64,000 nucleotides of DNA from Anaerolineales bacterium (GTDB taxonomy: Bacteria > Chloroflexota > Anaerolineae > Anaerolineales > UBA11579), in the NCBI GenBank assembly GCA_035291465.1, contig DATDRZ010000048.1:630-64629 (forward strand), given 5' to 3'. The notes under the pieces are model-generated. The model did no database searches. It was given only the letters and a program-made list of their open reading frames with translations, and was not told the DNA's origin. The position numbers and the translations under genes are program-made. This document shows, one piece after another, positions 6,023 through 44,073 of this stretch (positions are counted from its first letter, which is position 1; the number at the start of each line of letters is the position of its first letter).

Positions 6023-6111
6023 GGAGGGATGGCCGAGTGGCTTAAGGCGGCGGTCTTGAAAACCGTTGTGGGTGGCAACACTCACCGGGGGTTCGAATCC
6101 CTCTCCCTCCG
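6023..6111 (+). tRNA. tRNA-Ser (anticodon TGA)
   Basis: GGAGGGA/TCCCTCC acceptor, GTTCGAATCC T-arm, anticodon loop CTTGAAA, 20-nt variable arm (class II). Confidence 0.9.
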
Positions 6112-6125
6112 CTGCACCACAACCT

Positions 6126-6216
6126 GGGGAGGTCGCATAGCCTGGTCTAGTGCGCCCGCCTGCTAAGCGGGTTCCGGCGTTTTAGTCGGACGAGGGTTCA
6201 AATCCCTCCCTCCCCG
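6126..6216 (+). tRNA. tRNA-Ser (anticodon GCT)
   Basis: GGGGAGG/CCTCCCC acceptor, anticodon stem CCCGC/GCGGG with loop CTGCTAA, long variable arm, T-arm GAGGG-TTCAAAT-CCCTC. Confidence 0.85.
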
Positions 6217-6367
6217 CCTTGAATTTGGTTCATCCGCTCGTTACAATATTGAACAACCGATTGCATCAGCACTCGACAGTTTGAGAGCTTCGAAGAAGCG
6301 AGGAAACTGTAAGGTAACCGGGGCATATAGCCACTGGTTACCAACGAGGCCAATGCCCCGGTTACCA

Positions 6368-6440
6368 GCTCTCGTAGCTCAGTGGATAGAGCACTTGCTT
6401 GCGGAGCAAGGGGTCGCGCGTTCGAGTCGCGCCGAGAGCG
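6368..6440 (+). tRNA. tRNA-Arg (anticodon GCG)
   Basis: GCTCTCG/CGAGAGC acceptor, D-arm GCTCAGTGGATAGAGC, anticodon loop TTGCGGA, T-arm GCGCG-TTCGAGT-CGCGC; 73 nt. Confidence 0.9.
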
Positions 6441-33503: not shown

Positions 33504-34325
33504 CTAAACAGTTATTTCTTGCTCTCTCCAACGTATTGATTCAACTTCAGCGGATTCTCCGAGCAATTCATTTAAACGGGCTTTCATTGCTGCAGGATCT
33601 CCGCTAGTCAGATAACGGGTTGTCCCACCGCCAGTCTGCGGACTCCGAATGGCTCCCTCATCGAGCAACTGCTCAACCCGCCGTGCAATTGCCGGTGCTG
33701 GGTCGATCAGGCGTACGCCATCGCCAACTATGTCGCGGATGGCAGCGAACGCAAACGCGTAATGCGTACAACCCAGGACAACGGTGTCAAGTCCTTTAGC
33801 CAACATGGGTTCAAGGGCTGCCTTCAATATTCGGTGAGCTTCGGGGCCATTGGCGCGGCCCGCCTCGATCTCAGCGACCAAACCGGGGCAAGCGTCCTGC
33901 AAAATTGTGACGCCCTGCCCAAAGCGCTCGACCACCGAGGAATAGAGCTCCCCTTCGAATGTAGTAGGCGTCGCGAGAACGCCGACGACTCCACTCGCTG
34001 TGCGCTCTGCGGCTGGTTTGACCGCCGGTTCCATGCCCACAAATGGAAAACCCGGATATTGATCACGCAACGAATGGAGAGCAGCCGCGGATGCTGTATT
34101 GCAGGGAATCACGATCAGTTTTGCACCCTGATCCATCAAAAAGCGCACAATAACTTCCGAAAGGCGGCGCACTTCCGCCAGGCCGCGCGGGCCGTAGGGC
34201 ACGTGGGCCTGGTCAGCGAAGTAGATGAGATCTTCTCCTGGCAGGCGAGCGCGGATGGTGCGCAAGACGCTAAGCCCGCCAACCCCGGAATCAAACGCGC
34301 CGATGGGCGCCGATCTTTGAGCCAT
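33504..34325 (-). CDS. murI: glutamate racemase
   Basis: Trimmed to Met13. FDSGVGGLSVL, IPCNTASA, LGCTHY. Confidence 0.9.
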   Translation of the reverse strand: MAQRSAPIGAFDSGVGGLSVLRTIRARLPGEDLIYFADQAHVPYGPRGLAEVRRLSEVIVRFLMDQGAKLIVIPCNTASAAALHSLRDQYPGFPFVGMEPAVKPAAERTASGVVGVLATPTTFEGELYSSVVERFGQGVTILQDACPGLVAEIEAGRANGPEAHRILKAALEPMLAKGLDTVVLGCTHYAFAFAAIRDIVGDGVRLIDPAPAIARRVEQLLDEGAIRSPQTGGGTTRYLTSGDPAAMKARLNELLGESAEVESIRWREQEITV

Positions 34326-34394
34326 CTTTCTCCGAATAAAAACGGGTGCACTGCTAAACAATGCACCCGCGGTTATACCAGATAGATCTGGTGA

Positions 34395-34745
34395 TTAATC
34401 TTCGAACTTCTGCTTCAAGCGGCCGCTTTTGCCGCTGAGGCCCTTTAAGTATGTCAGGTGGGCGCGCCGAACTTTTGCACTCCTCTCAACCACCACTTTT
34501 TCGATCAGGGGTGAGCGCAGCAGGAAGGTACGCTCGACGCCGATGCCGTTGGCCGCTATACGGCGTACTGTGAAATTGCGGCTATTCCCCGCTTTGCCTA
34601 CGCGCATCACGGTGCCCTTGAACTCCTGGATACGCTCGCGGTCACCTTCTTTGATCTTGACGTGCACGCTAACCTGATCGCCCGAGCGCAGGGCAGGGAT
34701 ATTTTCATTGACCTTGGCCTCGACGGCCTGTAGCAAATTCGACAT
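34395..34745 (-). CDS. rplS: 50S ribosomal protein L19
   Basis: 116 aa. GDQVSVHVKIKEGDRERIQEFKGTV..., FTVRRIA.GIGVERTF. Confidence 0.95.
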   Translation of the reverse strand: MSNLLQAVEAKVNENIPALRSGDQVSVHVKIKEGDRERIQEFKGTVMRVGKAGNSRNFTVRRIAANGIGVERTFLLRSPLIEKVVVERSAKVRRAHLTYLKGLSGKSGRLKQKFED

Positions 34746-34874: not shown

Positions 34875-35723
34875 TTACGCAAACAGATCTGTCGACCGAT
34901 ATTGGTCCGGAACCGGAGGGAAGGCCCTGGTGAAAGTATCGCGCCTGCCTGTCAGCCGCCAATAGAGTTCCAACAGCGAAAAGCGGCTGAAGCGGCCATC
35001 CAGCTGGCTGGCGTGGCAAGCGTCTGCCTGGTGTTTGCGCTTTTCTACACTGCGGTAGTTGATGCTCACATGGGGTGGTGTGTCCTGGTCGCGGGCCAGT
35101 GCCGTTAGGTCAATATCCTTGTTGCGCCCCACCCGGCTCGGATCCTTGCCGGCGAGTCGCATCATGCGCACCAACCAGCGCAGTCGGCGACGATTTAGCG
35201 CGTTGTAATAAAGCCTCTCCGGTTGGAAGGGGTTGCCCGCATGTGGGAACTGACTGCCATCACCCGCCGCATGGAACGCTTGCACGGTGGCATTGTGGAT
35301 GGCGATATGGTCCGGGTGGTGATAGCCGCCGACGGGATCGAAAGTGAGAACCACTTGTGGGCGCAGCCGCCGAATCCCGTGGACAACCTTTTCGGCGACT
35401 TGCTCAAGCGGCGCCGAGACCAGCGAATTCGGATGCCGGTTATCCTCACTGCCGGGCATTCCCGAGTCCCTATAATCGAGAAAGATTACAGACGCCAACC
35501 CCAGCGTCTTGGCCGCGCAACGCAATTCCTCTTCGCGCAATGCGGCGATGTCCTTATGATTCTCGAGGAATTCCGGATCAACTGTGCCCGCCTCGCCACG
35601 AGTTGCGCAGATCAGGTGGACGTCCACACCTTGGGTGGAGTAATAAGCCAGGGTACCACCCATGCCAAATGACTCATCATCTGGGTGAGCTAAAACGGCG
35701 AGGATAACCTTATGATCGGACAT
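34875..35723 (-). CDS. PIG-L/LmbE family N-acetylglucosaminyl deacetylase
   Basis: Trimmed to Met17. AHPDDESFGMGGT and HPDH motifs. Confidence 0.85.
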   Translation of the reverse strand: MSDHKVILAVLAHPDDESFGMGGTLAYYSTQGVDVHLICATRGEAGTVDPEFLENHKDIAALREEELRCAAKTLGLASVIFLDYRDSGMPGSEDNRHPNSLVSAPLEQVAEKVVHGIRRLRPQVVLTFDPVGGYHHPDHIAIHNATVQAFHAAGDGSQFPHAGNPFQPERLYYNALNRRRLRWLVRMMRLAGKDPSRVGRNKDIDLTALARDQDTPPHVSINYRSVEKRKHQADACHASQLDGRFSRFSLLELYWRLTGRRDTFTRAFPPVPDQYRSTDLFA

Positions 35724-35832
35724 TTCCAAAGACGAAAACCGAATTATAGCCCCGAGGTCAGGATCAACCACAAAAGGCCAAAGATCAAAAAACTTTAAGC
35801 TTTTGTGTTCTTCGTGCCTTCGTGGTTATTTT

Positions 35833-37008
35833 CTAATAAACAGGCTGGGTGGGATCGACCTGCCGCGCCCAGGCATTGATGCCGCCCACGAGATTCTTCA
35901 CCTTTCTGAATCCGGCCAAGCGCATTAACTGCACGGCTCGACCGGAACGAGAGCCCGTGCGGCAAAAGACTACGAAATCGTCAGCCGTATCCAGTTCGGA
36001 GAGGTGGGCGGGCAGTTGGCCCAAGGGCATTAACTCTGCCCCGGCGATCTGGGAAATATTGAGCTCGTGAGGTTCGCGCACGTCCAGCAGCCTCGGTTTA
36101 TTTCCATTCCTCATTTGCTCAGCAAGCTCATTAGGCGAAATCTCATACTGCGACTCCATGGACACCTCTTCGTGGTCATGCGCGGGAACCCCACAGAAGG
36201 CTTCGTAATCGATCAGTTCAATTTCCTCGGCCGGCAGGCTGCAAACGGCGCAATTTGGATTCTTGCGCAGCTTCACAAAATCGAAGTGCATATCCAGGGC
36301 GTTGTAAAGAAGGAGTTTCCCAACCAACGGCTCGCCGATACCCAGCAACAGTTTCAACCCCTCACTCGCCTGCAGCGAACCGATAATCCCGGGAAGCACA
36401 CCCAGCACTCCGCCTTCCGCGCAGGAGGGCACCGTGCCGGGAGGCGGCGGCTCTGGGAACAGGCAGCGGTAGCAGGGTCCTCGCCTGGCATCGAAAACAG
36501 AGACCTGGCCATCAAAGCGAAAAATGGATCCGTAGACGTTGGGAATGCCCAGCTTCACACACACATCGTTGACCAGGTAGCGCGTCGGAAAATTATCCGT
36601 GCCGTCGATGATCAAGTCGTATCCTTCGGCGATACGCAGCGCATTCGAGGAGGTAAACGGTTCGTTATAGATATCCACCTGGATATCAGGATTGATATCC
36701 AGGACTCTGTCGCGCGCCGACTCAACCTTAAAAGTATTCAGCCGCGAGCTGCCATGGATAATCTGACGCTGGAGGTTGGAAAACTCCACCACGTCGTAAT
36801 CGACAAGACCGATTCGCCCCACTCCAGCAGCGGCCAGATACATGGCCACCGGCGATCCCAGGCCCCCAGTGCCAATGACAAGTACCGAGGAGGCCTTCAG
36901 CTTGCGCTGACCTTCAAGGCCGACTTCGGGAATCAGCAGGTGGCGCGAATATCGCAGAACCTCATCATGCGTGAGATCGGTGGGGCTTGGCATAGGATTC
37001 AAGATCAT
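35833..37008 (-). CDS. moeZ: MoeZ-type adenylyltransferase/sulfurtransferase (ThiF/MoeB E1 + rhodanese)
   Basis: GTGGLGSPVAMYLAAAGVG, CYRC...CAVC, C-terminal rhodanese with active-site CRTGSRS. Confidence 0.88.
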   Translation of the reverse strand: MILNPMPSPTDLTHDEVLRYSRHLLIPEVGLEGQRKLKASSVLVIGTGGLGSPVAMYLAAAGVGRIGLVDYDVVEFSNLQRQIIHGSSRLNTFKVESARDRVLDINPDIQVDIYNEPFTSSNALRIAEGYDLIIDGTDNFPTRYLVNDVCVKLGIPNVYGSIFRFDGQVSVFDARRGPCYRCLFPEPPPPGTVPSCAEGGVLGVLPGIIGSLQASEGLKLLLGIGEPLVGKLLLYNALDMHFDFVKLRKNPNCAVCSLPAEEIELIDYEAFCGVPAHDHEEVSMESQYEISPNELAEQMRNGNKPRLLDVREPHELNISQIAGAELMPLGQLPAHLSELDTADDFVVFCRTGSRSGRAVQLMRLAGFRKVKNLVGGINAWARQVDPTQPVY

Positions 37009-37496
37009 ATCAAACTCCGATTATTTTTCTTTTCGGTAATTGGCGAATGGATTTGTTCGAGTTCCAAATTTCTTGCCAGGCGCCTGCCTTCGGCAGTTTC
37101 CAATTGGCCGCGCAGTTTCTCCGCCGAGGCAACCCCGTGATTCACACCGCGCGGCCGTCCTTTGGAATCGATGATGAAAGTCGTCGGCACGCTAAGTACG
37201 CCCCAGTAATTTGCCAGGTCAGGTCGCTGGGCCGCATCCACTTGTATAACCTGTACCTGGTCGCGCAGTTCCTCGCTCAGGCGCTTCAGCGCCGGCTGCT
37301 GCTGGGCCTTGCAAGGTTGGCAATTGGGTGCGGTGAAGTACAAGATTGCAGGCGTTCCGGGGAGCCGGTTTTCGAGGCCATGGGTTGCCTTGCGGACCCG
37401 CCTTAACATGAGAACGTTGAATGCCCAATAGGCGCTGATCGCGATCAAAGCAATCCCTGCCGCCCAGACAGCCCGAATAAAGAGCTCAGCCATCAA
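37005..37496 (-). CDS. membrane-anchored thioredoxin-fold protein
   Basis: N-terminal TM, then YFTAPNCQPCK (CxxC). Overlaps both neighbours by 4 nt. Confidence 0.8.
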   Translation of the reverse strand: MMAELFIRAVWAAGIALIAISAYWAFNVLMLRRVRKATHGLENRLPGTPAILYFTAPNCQPCKAQQQPALKRLSEELRDQVQVIQVDAAQRPDLANYWGVLSVPTTFIIDSKGRPRGVNHGVASAEKLRGQLETAEGRRLARNLELEQIHSPITEKKNNRSLI

Positions 37497-38233
37497 CCCG
37501 CCTTAGGTCTAAGGCCGGGAAAAGTTCCGTCGGGAGGAGCTTTCACGAAACCTGGAACATGCAATCGATTCAACCAGTAATACACCATGCAGCCGGCGCA
37601 AAAACCGACGAACAGGTTGATCGCCGCCAGGAATATAACCAGCCATACCAAGGCCCAGCCCGCAACAGGAGCGCCGCCGGCCAATAAGGCTAAACCAAGC
37701 AGTTGAACGACGGCCCCGAACCCTTGTGCAAACCGGTGCGGTTCCATATTGTCCGTCAGAACATCAGGTTTCAGCCAGCCGCGCAGCCAACGGCGGTAAA
37801 CGAAGGCAAAGGCAGGAACTTTGAGCAATGTTCCAACCAGCATCGCCAGGCCCGCTATTCCGGCGAGCCAGGGTGCGTCGGAAACATAAGCCGCAATGCT
37901 GATGCCGATTATGAAGGCCTGATTGGTGCGCAGGGCGGCATGGTCCACGGTTTGCAGCGGAGTACCCCCCGCGATGCTGGGCAAGATCATCAGGCTGTCT
38001 CCCGGTTTTAATTGGGTATCGGGCCCGTACAGGTCGCGCACATTCTCGTCGTTCACGAAGAGATTGACGAAGGCGCGCAGCTCTCCCGACTCGGTGAAGA
38101 GGTGCGTTTTCAGTTGTGGGAAAGCAGCCACGAGTTCGTCCAGAGCACCTGACACGGTTCCTGATCTCACTTCCAATTGGGCTTTTCCATCTGTAAAGGG
38201 ACGCAGAGGACTCGGGATTTTTAGCGTGGTCAT
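37493..38233 (-). CDS. cysO: CysO/MoaD/ThiS-like sulfur carrier fused to DUF4395-like membrane domain
   Basis: Residues 1-90 form a beta-grasp ending LMILPSIAGG. Residues 91-246 form 4 TM helices ending FVGFCAGCMVYYW. Confidence 0.72.
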   Translation of the reverse strand: MTTLKIPSPLRPFTDGKAQLEVRSGTVSGALDELVAAFPQLKTHLFTESGELRAFVNLFVNDENVRDLYGPDTQLKPGDSLMILPSIAGGTPLQTVDHAALRTNQAFIIGISIAAYVSDAPWLAGIAGLAMLVGTLLKVPAFAFVYRRWLRGWLKPDVLTDNMEPHRFAQGFGAVVQLLGLALLAGGAPVAGWALVWLVIFLAAINLFVGFCAGCMVYYWLNRLHVPGFVKAPPDGTFPGLRPKAG

Positions 38234-38234
38234 T

Positions 38235-38687
38235 TCATCGACTCCTTGACTCGGTTATTTCTGTTTCCATTCGAATTTCCTCCTCCACAAACCCGGCGCG
38301 ATCATCACTGAGTCGCCAGGATCGGGTTTCCCCAGCCTTCCCATCTTGCACGCTGGTGATTAGGTAGCTAAACCAGGGCATGGCCCATTCGCGGTCGAAT
38401 TCCGAGGCTTGCGCGGGATGGTCGGGGTGGGAATGGAAAATACCAACCAAATCCAAGCCTAGGCGCTGGGCGGATTCTTCAGCGCGCAACACCTCCCGCG
38501 GCAAAAGGAGGTAGCGATTACCTCGCGCGGCCTCCTCCCGGCTGTTTTCGGCCGGCAGGATTGACATCAGGAAGCGGCGTTCGCCTTCCACGCGACCAAG
38601 CAGGAAACCTGCACCCTCTTCAGGATAAGCCGCCTCTCCATGAGCACGAATCCGGTTCATGAGGTCAATAGGTATGTGCAGCTTCAT
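38235..38687 (-). CDS. mec: JAMM/MPN+ metalloprotease (Mec+-like)
   Basis: YPEEGAGFLLG ... HSHPDHPAQASEFD is the E...HxHx7Sx2D JAMM motif. Confidence 0.88.
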   Translation of the reverse strand: MKLHIPIDLMNRIRAHGEAAYPEEGAGFLLGRVEGERRFLMSILPAENSREEAARGNRYLLLPREVLRAEESAQRLGLDLVGIFHSHPDHPAQASEFDREWAMPWFSYLITSVQDGKAGETRSWRLSDDRAGFVEEEIRMETEITESRSR

Positions 38688-39634
38688 TTTTCAAACCCCC
38701 AAAAAGTCTGGCTGAGATATTTATAACCCGTATCAGGGAACACAGTCACCACGATCCCTACTTCCAAGTCCTTCGCCACGCGCTGTGCGGCCACTGCCGC
38801 CGCACCCGAGGACACGCCTACGAACAAACCCTCTTCGCGAGCGATGCGCTTTGTCATCTCGTATGCCTCTTCGCTGCTGATCCCCAGCACTTCGTCCGCC
38901 AGTTCTGAATCGTAGATGCCCGGCAATATCGAGGTGCGCAAGTGCTTTAGGCCTTCCAGTCCATGGAAGGGGCCGTCAGGCTGGACACCGATCAGTTGGA
39001 TCGCCGGATTATGCTCGCGCAGATATCGTCCTGCACCCATCATGGTTCCAGTGGTGCCAAGACCAGCCACAAAATGCGTGACCGCACCGGCTGTCTGCCG
39101 CCAGATCTCAGGACCTGTGCTTTGGTAGTGCGCCTGCCAATTGGCCGGATTGTTGTACTGATCAGCAAAGAAATACCTCTCGGGGTTTTGTTCCAACAAC
39201 CTTCTCGCCAACAACAAAGCTCCGTCCGTCCCTTCAAGCGCATCGCTCCGGTGCAGCTCCGCTCCTAATGCGGCAAGTATCTTCAGTCTTTCCGGGCTGG
39301 CGGACGCGGGAATGGCCAATGCCACGCGGATGCCCAACGAGGCTCCCAAAGTCGCGTAGCTGATGCCCATATTGCCGGATGTCGAATCCAGCAGGATCTT
39401 GCCATTGCCGAGCTGGCCATCAGCCAGCGCTCGGCGAATGATATTGGCCGCCGGCCGATCCTTCACCGATCCGCCGGGGTTGAACCATTCCGCTTTGGCG
39501 AAGAGCCGGACGCCGGCCGGCGGCTCTGCGCCTAGCCTGGCGAGTGGCAGCAGGGGTGTGTTGCCCACCGCATCCAACAAACCGGAGCTGAGCGTCTTGC
39601 GATTGAGGCGAAGTTTCGTTTGTGTAGTTACCAT
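38684..39634 (-). CDS. cysM: cysteine synthase B-type (CysM, sulfur-carrier dependent)
   Basis: Start set at ATG 39634 (MVTTQTK...). NPGGSVKDRPA (PLP Lys), TSGNMGIS. Confidence 0.88.
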   Translation of the reverse strand: MVTTQTKLRLNRKTLSSGLLDAVGNTPLLPLARLGAEPPAGVRLFAKAEWFNPGGSVKDRPAANIIRRALADGQLGNGKILLDSTSGNMGISYATLGASLGIRVALAIPASASPERLKILAALGAELHRSDALEGTDGALLLARRLLEQNPERYFFADQYNNPANWQAHYQSTGPEIWRQTAGAVTHFVAGLGTTGTMMGAGRYLREHNPAIQLIGVQPDGPFHGLEGLKHLRTSILPGIYDSELADEVLGISSEEAYEMTKRIAREEGLFVGVSSGAAAVAAQRVAKDLEVGIVVTVFPDTGYKYLSQTFWGFEK

Positions 39635-39651
39635 TTCAAACCAAAACAAAA

Positions 39652-39745
39652 GCGGCCAACAGGAAACAAAAAACGGGCTTGCCGACTGGCATGCAACCTA
39701 GACATGCATGCGGGGGTGGCAACCGCCCGTTCTTCTGTTGGCCGC
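39652..39745 (-). promoter_or_regulatory. nested terminator-type hairpin in the cysM leader (putative attenuator expression platform)
   Basis: Outer stem GCGGCCAACAG/CTGTTGGCCGC (11 bp). Inner stem AACGGGC(GG)TTGCC/GGCAAGCCCGTT. Apical stem GCATGCA/TGCATGC. The inner stem is followed by TTTTGTTT and the outer stem by TTTTGTTTTGG. Confidence 0.55.
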
Positions 39746-39770
39746 TTAGCGGGTCAGATGGTCTGGGCGG

Positions 39771-39815
39771 TTAGCTTCCCCGCCCCAAACACAAGCAAGT
39801 GTTTTGAGTACGCAT
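39771..39815 (-). CDS. candidate 14-codon leader peptide MRTQNTCLCLGRGS
   Basis: ATG CGT ACT CAA AAC ACT TGC TTG TGT TTG GGG CGG GGA AGC TAA. Two Cys codons. The stop sits in the loop between complementary GGGGCGGGG and CCGCCC. No SD. Confidence 0.35.
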   Translation of the reverse strand: MRTQNTCLCLGRGS

Positions 39816-39837
39816 ATTCTAGAATTAAGTCTTACAA

Positions 39838-39865
39838 ATTATAAGGGCGGATTTCCAAGTGTCAA
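39838..39865 (-). promoter_or_regulatory. consensus sigma70-type promoter of the cys operon
   Basis: Minus strand TTGACA (39865-39860), 16 nt spacer, TATAAT (39843-39838). Confidence 0.6.
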
Positions 39866-43986: not shown

Positions 43987-44073
43987 CGGAGAGGGAGGGA
44001 TTCGAACCCTCGATACCTTGCGGTATACGCGCTTTCCAAGCGCGCGCACTAGGCCAGACTATGCGACCTCTCC
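43987..44073 (-). tRNA. tRNA-Ser (anticodon GGA)
   Basis: The reverse complement reads GGAGAGG-TC-GCATAGTCTGGCCTAGTGC-G-CGCGC-TTGGAAA-GCGCG-variable arm-GAGGGTTCGAATCCCTC-CCTCTCC-G. Confidence 0.88.

Follow-up and report, generated by a model that had tools for sequence, protein, structure and literature searches.

How can a sulfur carrier that acts through a C-terminal Gly-Gly (GG) function when its reading frame continues into a membrane protein? This question is raised by a locus in a soil bacterium of the order Anaerolineales, within a stretch of 64,000 nucleotides (contig DATDRZ010000048.1, positions 630 to 64,629) that we refer to as the window. Five genes on its minus strand, between positions 35833 and 39649, encode a CysM-like enzyme, a JAMM metalloprotease of the Mec+ type, a fusion of a CysO-type carrier to the membrane domain DUF4395, a membrane-anchored thioredoxin, and a MoeZ-type activating enzyme (E1) with a rhodanese domain. 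We consider that the locus as a whole is best explained, with a probability of roughly 65%, by a CysO-dependent cysteine pathway of Anaerolineae in which the carrier fusion is cut after Gly90 and DUF4395 and the thioredoxin act as a thiol-redox pair.

The CysO route is best known from Mycobacterium tuberculosis, where it has been studied as a stress-resistant pathway and where the established reaction of Mec+ is hydrolysis of the amide in the CysO-GG~Cys adduct. In the pathway proposed here, transcription would start at a strong promoter and pass through a leader attenuator containing Cys codons. CysO would be made as the first 90 residues of the DUF4395 fusion and released by a cut after Gly90, made by the adjacent JAMM (Mec+) protein. 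The remaining steps would follow the M. tuberculosis cycle: free CysO would be adenylated and thiocarboxylated by MoeZ, CysM would couple the thiocarboxylated carrier to activated serine, and the JAMM protein would free cysteine and recycle CysO. The fusion itself would provide co-production at a 1:1 ratio and delivery at the membrane, not a new mechanism.

Genes were assigned by Pfam and NCBIfam profile searches. The five open reading frames (ORFs) lie where the initial annotation of this DNA had placed them; neighbors overlap by 4 nucleotides (nt) or abut, and the genes are translationally coupled. The product of the first gene is a fold-type II pyridoxal phosphate (PLP) enzyme of the cysteine synthase family (PALP, E 1.3e-70), which matches the CysM structures 2jc3 (2e-66) and, from M. 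tuberculosis, 3dwg_A (4e-56) in the PDB. Its start is ambiguous between the TTG at 39649 and the ATG at 39634, the ATG being more likely. The second product belongs to Prok-JAB (E 1.5e-21; PDB 2kcq, E 6.5e-30) and contains the zinc-binding motif E-xn-H-S/T-H-x7-S-xx-D as YPEEG...HSHPDHPAQASEFD. The last product combines ThiF (E 4.8e-84) with Rhodanese (E 9e-17) and passes the NCBIfam MoeB model NF006444 (464.2 vs 449).

A species-level scan with one genome per species found relatives in 415 genomes, and the loci compared below were taken from the best 80 of these 415, essentially all of them Chloroflexota of the class Anaerolineae. Nearly all of the 84 loci preserve the order CysM-JAB-CysO/DUF4395-thioredoxin-MoeZ on one strand, even at identities of only about 45%. 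With few exceptions, the loci begin with a gene for a PLP enzyme of the cysteine synthase family, and in nearly all 84 a ThiF-rhodanese E1 gene shares the operon with the carrier. Together, the Pfam assignments and this conserved neighborhood bear out the earlier proposal of an operon of the CysO, CysM, Mec+, and MoeZ type; the membrane thioredoxin, which had been counted as part of it, is a constant neighbor across the loci. One locus, L004, has the fusion, the thioredoxin, and MoeZ, but neither CysM nor JAB is encoded locally.

Judged by sequence profiles and by predicted structure, residues 1-90 of the fusion are a CysO-type beta-grasp domain. The ThiS profile of Pfam covers residues 5-90 (E 1.8e-9), and a profile built from 29 fusion proteins finds as its best solved-structure matches the CysO proteins of Amycolatopsis (4n6e_B, E 1.4e-18) and M. 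tuberculosis (3dwg_C, E 3.3e-17). Both chains terminate at a GG that aligns with Gly89-Gly90 of the window protein, at nt 37969-37964 as first reported. In a Foldseek comparison, the AlphaFold model (mean pLDDT 93.7) superposes on the CysO chains with a TM-score of 0.86-0.89 and 38% identity, the values for M. tuberculosis CysO being 0.86 and 38%. The match of the N-terminal 90 residues to carrier profiles, on which the initial annotation had made its proposal depend, was thus found with ThiS, 3dwg_C, and 4n6e_B alike. The PSIAGG motif is invariant across the fusions, and the linker that follows it ranges from 4 to 18 residues. As encoded, however, the GG occupies residues 89-90 of 246 and is not C-terminal, and its carboxylate would be free only after the proposed cleavage.

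The fusion is real. In four independent soil metagenome runs, the GG junction is covered by contigs and no indel is seen. Three of these runs each have a single contig, at 9-42x depth, that matches 37000-38700 from end to end with neither mismatch nor gap. Both Pfam domains occur in all of the 120 best hits among 2877 homologues, proteins of about 245-260 residues, down to 55% identity. The proposal of a carrier synthesized as a fusion to a four-helix DUF4395 domain is thereby borne out. The NCBI names of the best of these homologues, from Anaerolineales, are “DUF4395 family protein” or “ubiquitin-like small modifier protein 1.” A continuous fused ORF is also present in 59 further loci, to 46% identity. 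Relatives with two ORFs do exist, as they would if the fusion had arisen from a stop codon lost, or a frameshift introduced, between two genes during sequencing or assembly, and their occurrence had been named beforehand as a ground for rejecting the fusion. Such relatives are indeed many, but they reflect gene fusion and fission in evolution: three independent assemblies are identical over the junction, and the same continuous ORF recurs in the 59 loci and in every one of the 120 best protein hits. We rule out a frameshift or assembly artefact on these grounds and give it practically no chance. One soil run, X1, contributed a low-depth contig with two pieces of 20-26 nt at 37920-37945 and 38416-38435, reported as joined with 470 bases skipped between them. 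This contig most likely comes from another organism that shares common short conserved words and is not a deletion variant.

The arrangement of the carrier and DUF4395 in relatives provides the strongest indication of how the fusion works. The sequence across the junction was inspected locus by locus in L001-L084, giving 59 fused and 25 split loci, a ratio that is not an unbiased frequency since only the best 80 of 415 genomes were kept and a tblastn alignment can run through an in-frame stop; L088-L091 are also split. In the split loci, CysO terminates at PSIAGG-stop or at GG followed by 1-7 residues (C, K, M, R, QG, RS, RK, RA, RR, NGD, WEGQS, or KSFTILA); the carrier of L017, for example, is encoded as CysO-GGC. 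DUF4395 then has its own Met start from a few to about 100 nt downstream, often with a ribosome-binding site ahead of it. Standalone DUF4395 genes found by a separate route, one of them labeled Binatia, lie in six-gene operons with the order PALP-JAB-ThiS-DUF4395-thioredoxin-ThiF/Rhodanese, in which the ThiS-type carrier has 89-93 residues. These sequences form a continuum from GG-stop through GG plus a few residues to GG plus a whole membrane protein. The fused and split states interleave on an approximate neighbor-joining tree of MoeZ, and parsimony requires at least about 12 changes between them. This interchange suggests that the two states are functionally near-equivalent and that the fusion is one of two interchangeable gene arrangements.

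The chemistry of ThiS, MoaD, and CysO requires a free C-terminal carboxylate (PMC3227635, PMC4326299). Because the two states appear near-equivalent and the carboxylate of the carrier must be adenylated, cleavage after Gly90 would be needed, and the release of CysO by such a cut is strongly favored by the sequences. An alternative is that the carrier stays attached, either as a CysO-like docking module that recruits MoeZ and CysM to the membrane or under redox gating, with sulfur passing through the cysteines of DUF4395 and the thioredoxin or through another, free carrier. A defined arrangement of this kind would be compatible with the AlphaFold model, which is confident for both domains (pTM 0.75), and a tethered pathway would fit the co-localization with a membrane thioredoxin. 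Nevertheless, an attached carrier would lack the carboxylate that the chemistry demands, an invariant GG is unneeded in an internal linker, the junction is the part of the model with the lowest pLDDT, and relatives have a free carrier ending in GG, with the two states interchanging repeatedly. We therefore consider permanent attachment very improbable. The same observations bear on what the initial annotation had made of the fusion. Release from a membrane pro-protein is favored by the GG-stop relatives and by the repeated switches, the JAMM protein as its agent being the part that rests on precedent and position. Operation tethered to the membrane is disfavored by the adenylation step, with its need for a free Gly-Gly carboxylate, and by split lineages that work without a tether. 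Proteolytic or redox gating of cysteine synthesis finds no support; that fused and split forms replace each other freely speaks against much regulation by the fusion.

Programmed readthrough of the stop codon in split relatives was also considered. The split pairs share a frame in 23 of the 25 cases within L001-L084, an excess that is most likely an artefact of the ranking described above. In L088-L091, which were retrieved by another route, all pairs are out of frame, the stops are mixed (TAA, TAG, and TGA), and five spacers contain a second stop; we rejected readthrough on this evidence. The spacers between cysO and DUF4395 in some split relatives (Ardenticatenaceae, Leptofilum, and Promineifilaceae) are rich in inverted repeats such as GTGAAACGTGAAACGTGA...TCACGTTTCACGTTTCAC, found at L054:6274-6366, L056:6271-6378, L063:6274-6381, L077:6280-6360, and L069:814-897. 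They may form hairpins within the operon, through which the carrier and the downstream genes would be expressed at different levels.

Which protease would release the carrier? The adjacent JAMM protein is most plausibly the agent and the obvious one, because the bond broken in its established Mec+ reaction, the CysO-GG~Cys amide, is of the same type. Precedents point the same way: the carriers QbsE and CxnE have C-terminal extensions for which trimming after GG by the JAMM proteins QbsD and CxnF has been proposed (PMC5925218), and JAB proteins have been proposed to free ThiS/MoaD domains from fusions (PMC1779556). In MoaX, cleavage occurs after Gly82, and cleavage after its Gly-Gly is required for activity (PMC4326299). 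A different possibility is that Gly90 is cut by DUF4395 itself, through Asp, His, and Cys residues, or by a housekeeping protease, with the JAMM protein acting as a CysO-Cys hydrolase only. The family-wide conserved residues D97, H166, and C212/C215 do resemble a Cys-His-Asp set, D97 lies just 7 residues past Gly90, and L004 has the fusion with no JAMM gene nearby. However, standalone DUF4395 proteins keep the same residues with nothing to cut, a JAMM gene adjoins the fusion in nearly all fused loci, and JAMM trimming is the route already proposed for QbsE and CxnE. On balance, we regard cleavage by another agent as unlikely.

Residues 96-223 match DUF4395 (PF14340) over profile positions 1-130 of 130 with 97.3 bits against a cut-off of 24.5 (E 1.2e-27). 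The family is of modest size: in a set of 1.84 billion representative sequences it accounts for 345 clusters at 50% identity, and most members stand alone and have 145-170 residues. A literature search found no functional work on it, only mentions in lists in two papers. Conserved family-wide are D97, Y146, H166, F168, W193, and the pair C212-x-G-C215 (window numbering); C215 is invariant and C212 is present in at least 90% of members. The initial annotation had the membrane domain end in FCAGC, which falls short: the protein runs 31 residues past this motif (211-215), as a further helix and a 23-residue tail. In the domain model (pLDDT 89.6), four long helices are accompanied by a short two-stranded sheet that joins the VDH and VLTD segments, and the CxxC sits at the break between the fourth transmembrane helix and the last helix. 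The predicted outside loops are 3 residues long with 0.01 Lys+Arg, compared with 8.4 Lys+Arg in the inside segments. Because the inside segments are rich in these residues and the N-terminal CysO is cytoplasmic, the topology is predicted to be N-in/C-in, with the CxxC and every other conserved polar residue on the cytoplasmic side. Two further ideas about this domain were rejected. A fold like that of DsbB and VKOR, four-helix CxxC thiol oxidoreductases linked to quinones, is not indicated, as no DsbB or VKOR chain is among the 50 Foldseek PDB matches listed and the CxxC is predicted to be cytoplasmic and not on the outer face; a bis-His heme site is contradicted by His98, which is not conserved in the family, many members having VDQ.

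The neighboring thioredoxin domain is clear (PF00085, 45.1 bits vs 23.5, E 1.1e-11), with the active site CQPC in the window and mostly C-A-P-C or C-V-P-C in homologues. An Arg/Lys-rich stretch follows its transmembrane helix in 84 of 89 homologues, so that the domain should lie on the cytoplasmic side. The thioredoxin adjoins DUF4395 in all the operons. A natural DUF4395-thioredoxin fusion of 268 residues, P0138, was found in two independent metagenome assemblies (L086:3053-3859 and L087:2743-3549); it has no transmembrane helix between the domains and supports both a same-side orientation and a functional partnership. Together with the positive-inside pattern, this fusion disfavors a periplasmic thioredoxin of the TlpA/ResA kind. 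The association also extends beyond the CysO operons: in 14 metagenomic loci and in L094, a thioredoxin lies directly downstream of a distant DUF4395 without CysO, JAMM, MoeZ, or CysM. In L095:1171-6498, a distant DUF4395 occurs with a YeeE/YedE-type sulfur transporter (PF04143), TusA, and a thioredoxin, which is a second, independent link of the family to sulfur trafficking.

These findings lead to a proposal for the two extra genes, which lie between cysO and moeZ, persist with MoeZ in L004, and encode redox cysteines that face the cytoplasm. For these reasons we place DUF4395 and the inward-facing thioredoxin, as a conserved thiol-redox pair, on the half of the pathway in which CysO is loaded with sulfur by MoeZ. 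There, they could pass sulfane sulfur to the rhodanese cysteine of MoeZ or reduce persulfide or disulfide intermediates left on the enzyme. The related enzymes Uba4 and MOCS3 end each turnover with a disulfide or acyl-disulfide on the enzyme, for the removal of which a dithiol reductant is needed; a thioredoxin reserved for this purpose would fit. For MoeZ-type enzymes, a rhodanese persulfide is formed, and the physiological sulfur donor and the subsequent reductant are acknowledged gaps (PMC3227635). Taken alone, a role of the pair in sulfur loading is tentative, with somewhat less than even odds, and DUF4395 may contribute sulfur, electrons, or only a membrane platform. A bolder version would make DUF4395 and the thioredoxin the missing upstream module of rhodanese-E1 activation, a cytoplasm-facing membrane thiol/persulfide relay that captures inorganic or membrane-associated sulfane sulfur and loads or re-reduces MoeZ, with the fusion bringing CysO to that site. 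This version is speculative and, in our estimation, rather unlikely; if true, it would give a function to a domain of unknown function and a source of sulfur for the CysO pathway when cysteine cannot be the donor.

Independent support for cysteine as the end product comes from the 5' region of the operon. Behind a promoter that agrees with the sigma-70 consensus at every position lies a leader of 200 nt, strongly structured (z = -4.5), with a short ORF whose Cys codons stand near its stop. In relatives, the pattern 5' of cysM is C-x-C, 3-5 codons, and a stop (L001-L091; window 39635-39865). Of 77 related loci, 65 have a C-x-C leader ORF, whereas the reverse strand gives 4 of 77 and shuffled sequences give 6.7%. 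If 5 or more T in a row are also required downstream, 53 of 77 loci remain, compared with 0 of 77 on the opposite strand and 0.8% of shuffles. Folding of 52 distinct leaders placed a terminator hairpin ahead of the T run in 47. For 15 closer leaders, RNAalifold returned a hairpin that covers the ORF end together with a long-range helix of 11 bp around the terminator, with 9 of 24 pairs compensatory; for 28 divergent leaders it returned no structure, and no Rfam family matches the leader. With a ribosome footprint placed at the second Cys codon, the minimum-energy fold of the window leader is the antiterminator, UAACCGCCC pairing with GGGCGGUU, and with the footprint at the stop codon it is the terminator. 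The family-wide ensemble shifts modestly in the same direction (0.78 vs 0.88, p about 0.001).

From its sequence, the leader looks like a classical cysteine transcription attenuator in Chloroflexota, and the operon is tied to cysteine because this element precedes cysM. Like the polycysteine leaders of mycobacteria, it places a short ORF, with Cys codons close to the stop, ahead of cysteine-biosynthesis genes. The mycobacterial leader ORFs act on translation and are without terminator hairpins (bioRxiv 10.1101/834739; PMC1262725), whereas the element described here has a predicted hairpin, a U-run, and a predicted competing antiterminator, the layout of transcription attenuation. Independently of the fusion, it would extend cysteine-sensing leader-peptide attenuation beyond Actinobacteria, in its classical transcription-termination form.

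The leader also bears on the possibility that the product is not cysteine. The operon might instead make another thio-compound or modify proteins, with the CysO-like domain as a donor to a different acceptor or as a modifier of the SAMP/Urm1 kind and with DUF4395 and the thioredoxin as its target or handler. In this direction point the best NCBIfam model for the carrier, SAMP1, which is missed only slightly (55.6 vs a cut-off of 60), a weak match of the JAMM product to “desampylase,” a CysM product below the cysM equivalog cut-off, and a PIG-L (MshB/BshB-like) deacetylase gene 3' of the operon in the closest relatives. We hold such a product to be improbable, given a Cys-codon leader in 65 of 77 loci with a layout typical of end-product attenuation, a cysteine-synthase-family enzyme at the head of nearly every operon, and CysO proteins as the closest solved structures.

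Compared with the CysO-CysM-Mec+-MoeZ system of M. tuberculosis (Rv1334-1336 and Rv3206c), the locus has the same four protein types, an intact JAMM motif, and an E1 with a rhodanese domain. It differs in the fusion of the carrier to DUF4395, in the additional DUF4395 and membrane-anchored thioredoxin between cysO and moeZ, in CysM and MoeZ products that fall under the NCBIfam equivalog cut-offs, and in having all genes in one operon; in M. tuberculosis, moeZ is located apart from the mec-cysO-cysM genes.

With QbsE/QbsD (GG-CF) and CxnE/CxnF (GG plus a decapeptide), it shares residues past GG and a JAMM gene in the cluster (PMC5925218), and the split relatives share short tails of 1-7 residues with this type. 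Unlike in those carriers, the extension in the window is a whole, independently conserved membrane protein of 156 residues and not a disposable peptide. In MoaX, the MoaD-MoaE fusion of M. tuberculosis, the carrier is likewise placed upstream of a functional partner (PMC4326299), although that partner is the soluble large subunit of molybdopterin synthase, whereas here it is a membrane protein with a JAMM gene adjacent. The core of ThiS/MoaD, JAB, E1-rhodanese, and cysteine synthase corresponds to operon type 4c of Iyer, Burroughs, and Aravind (2006), which includes Chloroflexus among others; a thioredoxin is nowhere mentioned in that paper, nor is a membrane partner for this type, and the sole membrane-fused beta-grasp domain described, YukD with a 12-helix transmembrane domain, lacks a GG and does not act as a sulfur carrier (PMC1779556).

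A CysO pathway, trimming by JAMM proteins, and fusions of carriers have thus all been described before. New are the fusion of a carrier to an independently conserved membrane protein and, of more weight, the finding that this operon contains DUF4395 and an inward-facing membrane thioredoxin as constant members throughout a bacterial class. This is the first link of DUF4395 and a membrane thioredoxin to the CysO pathway. The locus and its hundreds of relatives offer a functional context for DUF4395 and a fused/split series for the study of JAMM processing of a membrane pro-protein, and they make DUF4395 and the thioredoxin candidates for the step that delivers sulfur to MoeZ or reduces it.

Several observations weigh against the explanation that we prefer. 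We infer both the cleavage and the protease responsible from gene adjacency and precedents, and the protease that cleaves MoaX after its GG is still unidentified (PMC4326299), so that the adjacent JAMM protein is not the sole option. The CysM product scores 355.8 bits on its best NCBIfam model, the cysM model TIGR01138, under the equivalog cut-off of 394.2, and its substrate may be O-phosphoserine or O-acetylserine; the MoeZ-type product likewise scores 477.3 on NF005902, under the MoeZ equivalog cut-off of 647. No relative of known function could be detected for DUF4395 (best Foldseek match E 0.9, TM-score at most 0.4). A relationship to the YgaP-like transmembrane domain (PF11127), a membrane anchor of rhodaneses, was suggested by sub-threshold Pfam matches in 4 of 34 members (best E 0.11) and was not confirmed by hhalign, either with a single sequence or with a 29-sequence profile, for which the probabilities were 2.1% and 0.24%. 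A DUF4395 subgroup of the P0153 type has neither a thioredoxin nor sulfur genes nearby, its neighbors being LysR, a hydrolase, MAPEG, and others; this refutes a universal DUF4395-thioredoxin linkage, and the function of the family may be broader than a sulfur relay. Metatranscriptome support consists of a single specific contig of 189 nt.

The features of the operon and its leader are listed below with their window coordinates.

Table. Coordinates of the proposed cysteine operon, its leader, and the domains of the fusion protein in the window
Feature	Position	Strand	Remarks
Sigma-70-type promoter, TTGACA-16 nt-TATAAT	39838..39865	-	12/12 consensus matches
Leader mini-ORF MRTQNTCLCLGRGS*, two Cys codons (C-x-C) near stop	39771..39815	-	Conserved in related loci
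Terminator-like hairpin AACGGGCGGUUGCC...GGCAAGCCCGUU followed by U-run	39668..39733	-	5' arm can alternatively pair with UAACCGCCC just past the leader stop (antiterminator)
cysM-like PLP-dependent sulfhydrylase	38684..39634	-	Alternative TTG start at 39649
JAMM/MPN+ metalloprotease, Mec+-like	38235..38687	-	E...HSH-x7-S-xx-D motif intact
CysO-DUF4395 fusion gene	37493-38233	-	246 aa; ThiS and DUF4395 Pfam domains
CysO-type beta-grasp sulfur-carrier domain, residues 1-90	37964..38233	-	Ends in invariant PSIAGG
Linker, residues 91-96	37946..37963	-	4 to 18 aa in relatives; proposed cleavage at 5' edge, after Gly90
DUF4395 domain, residues 96-223	37565..37948	-	Four transmembrane helices, predicted N-in/C-in
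C212-A-G-C215 pair, cytoplasmic end of fourth transmembrane helix	37589..37600	-	Family conservation
Thioredoxin, single N-terminal transmembrane anchor	37005..37496	-	C59-Q-P-C62 at nt 37311-37322
MoeZ-type E1 (ThiF) with C-terminal rhodanese	35833..37008	-	Active-site loop CRTGSR

Some observations concern the surroundings of the operon. In the relative represented by L002 and L003, transposase genes surround the locus, and minus-strand ORFs without a Pfam match lie between the JAMM and fusion genes (three in L002:5355-6814 and two in L003:5357-6814); the operon is interrupted there, and all five genes are retained. On the 3' side of moeZ in the window follow genes for a PIG-L deacetylase (34875-35771), rplS (34395-34745), and murI (33504-34361), an order that is kept in the closest relatives, L001 and L005-L008. 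The deacetylase is MshB/Mca/BshB-like and scores under every equivalog cut-off; its position may link cysteine supply to a low-molecular-weight thiol. The mec-cysO-cysM cluster of M. tuberculosis presumably also adjoins murI. Elsewhere in the 64-kb window, the only Rfam matches are tRNA genes, three clustered at 6023-6440 on the plus strand and one isolated at 43987-44073 on the minus strand.

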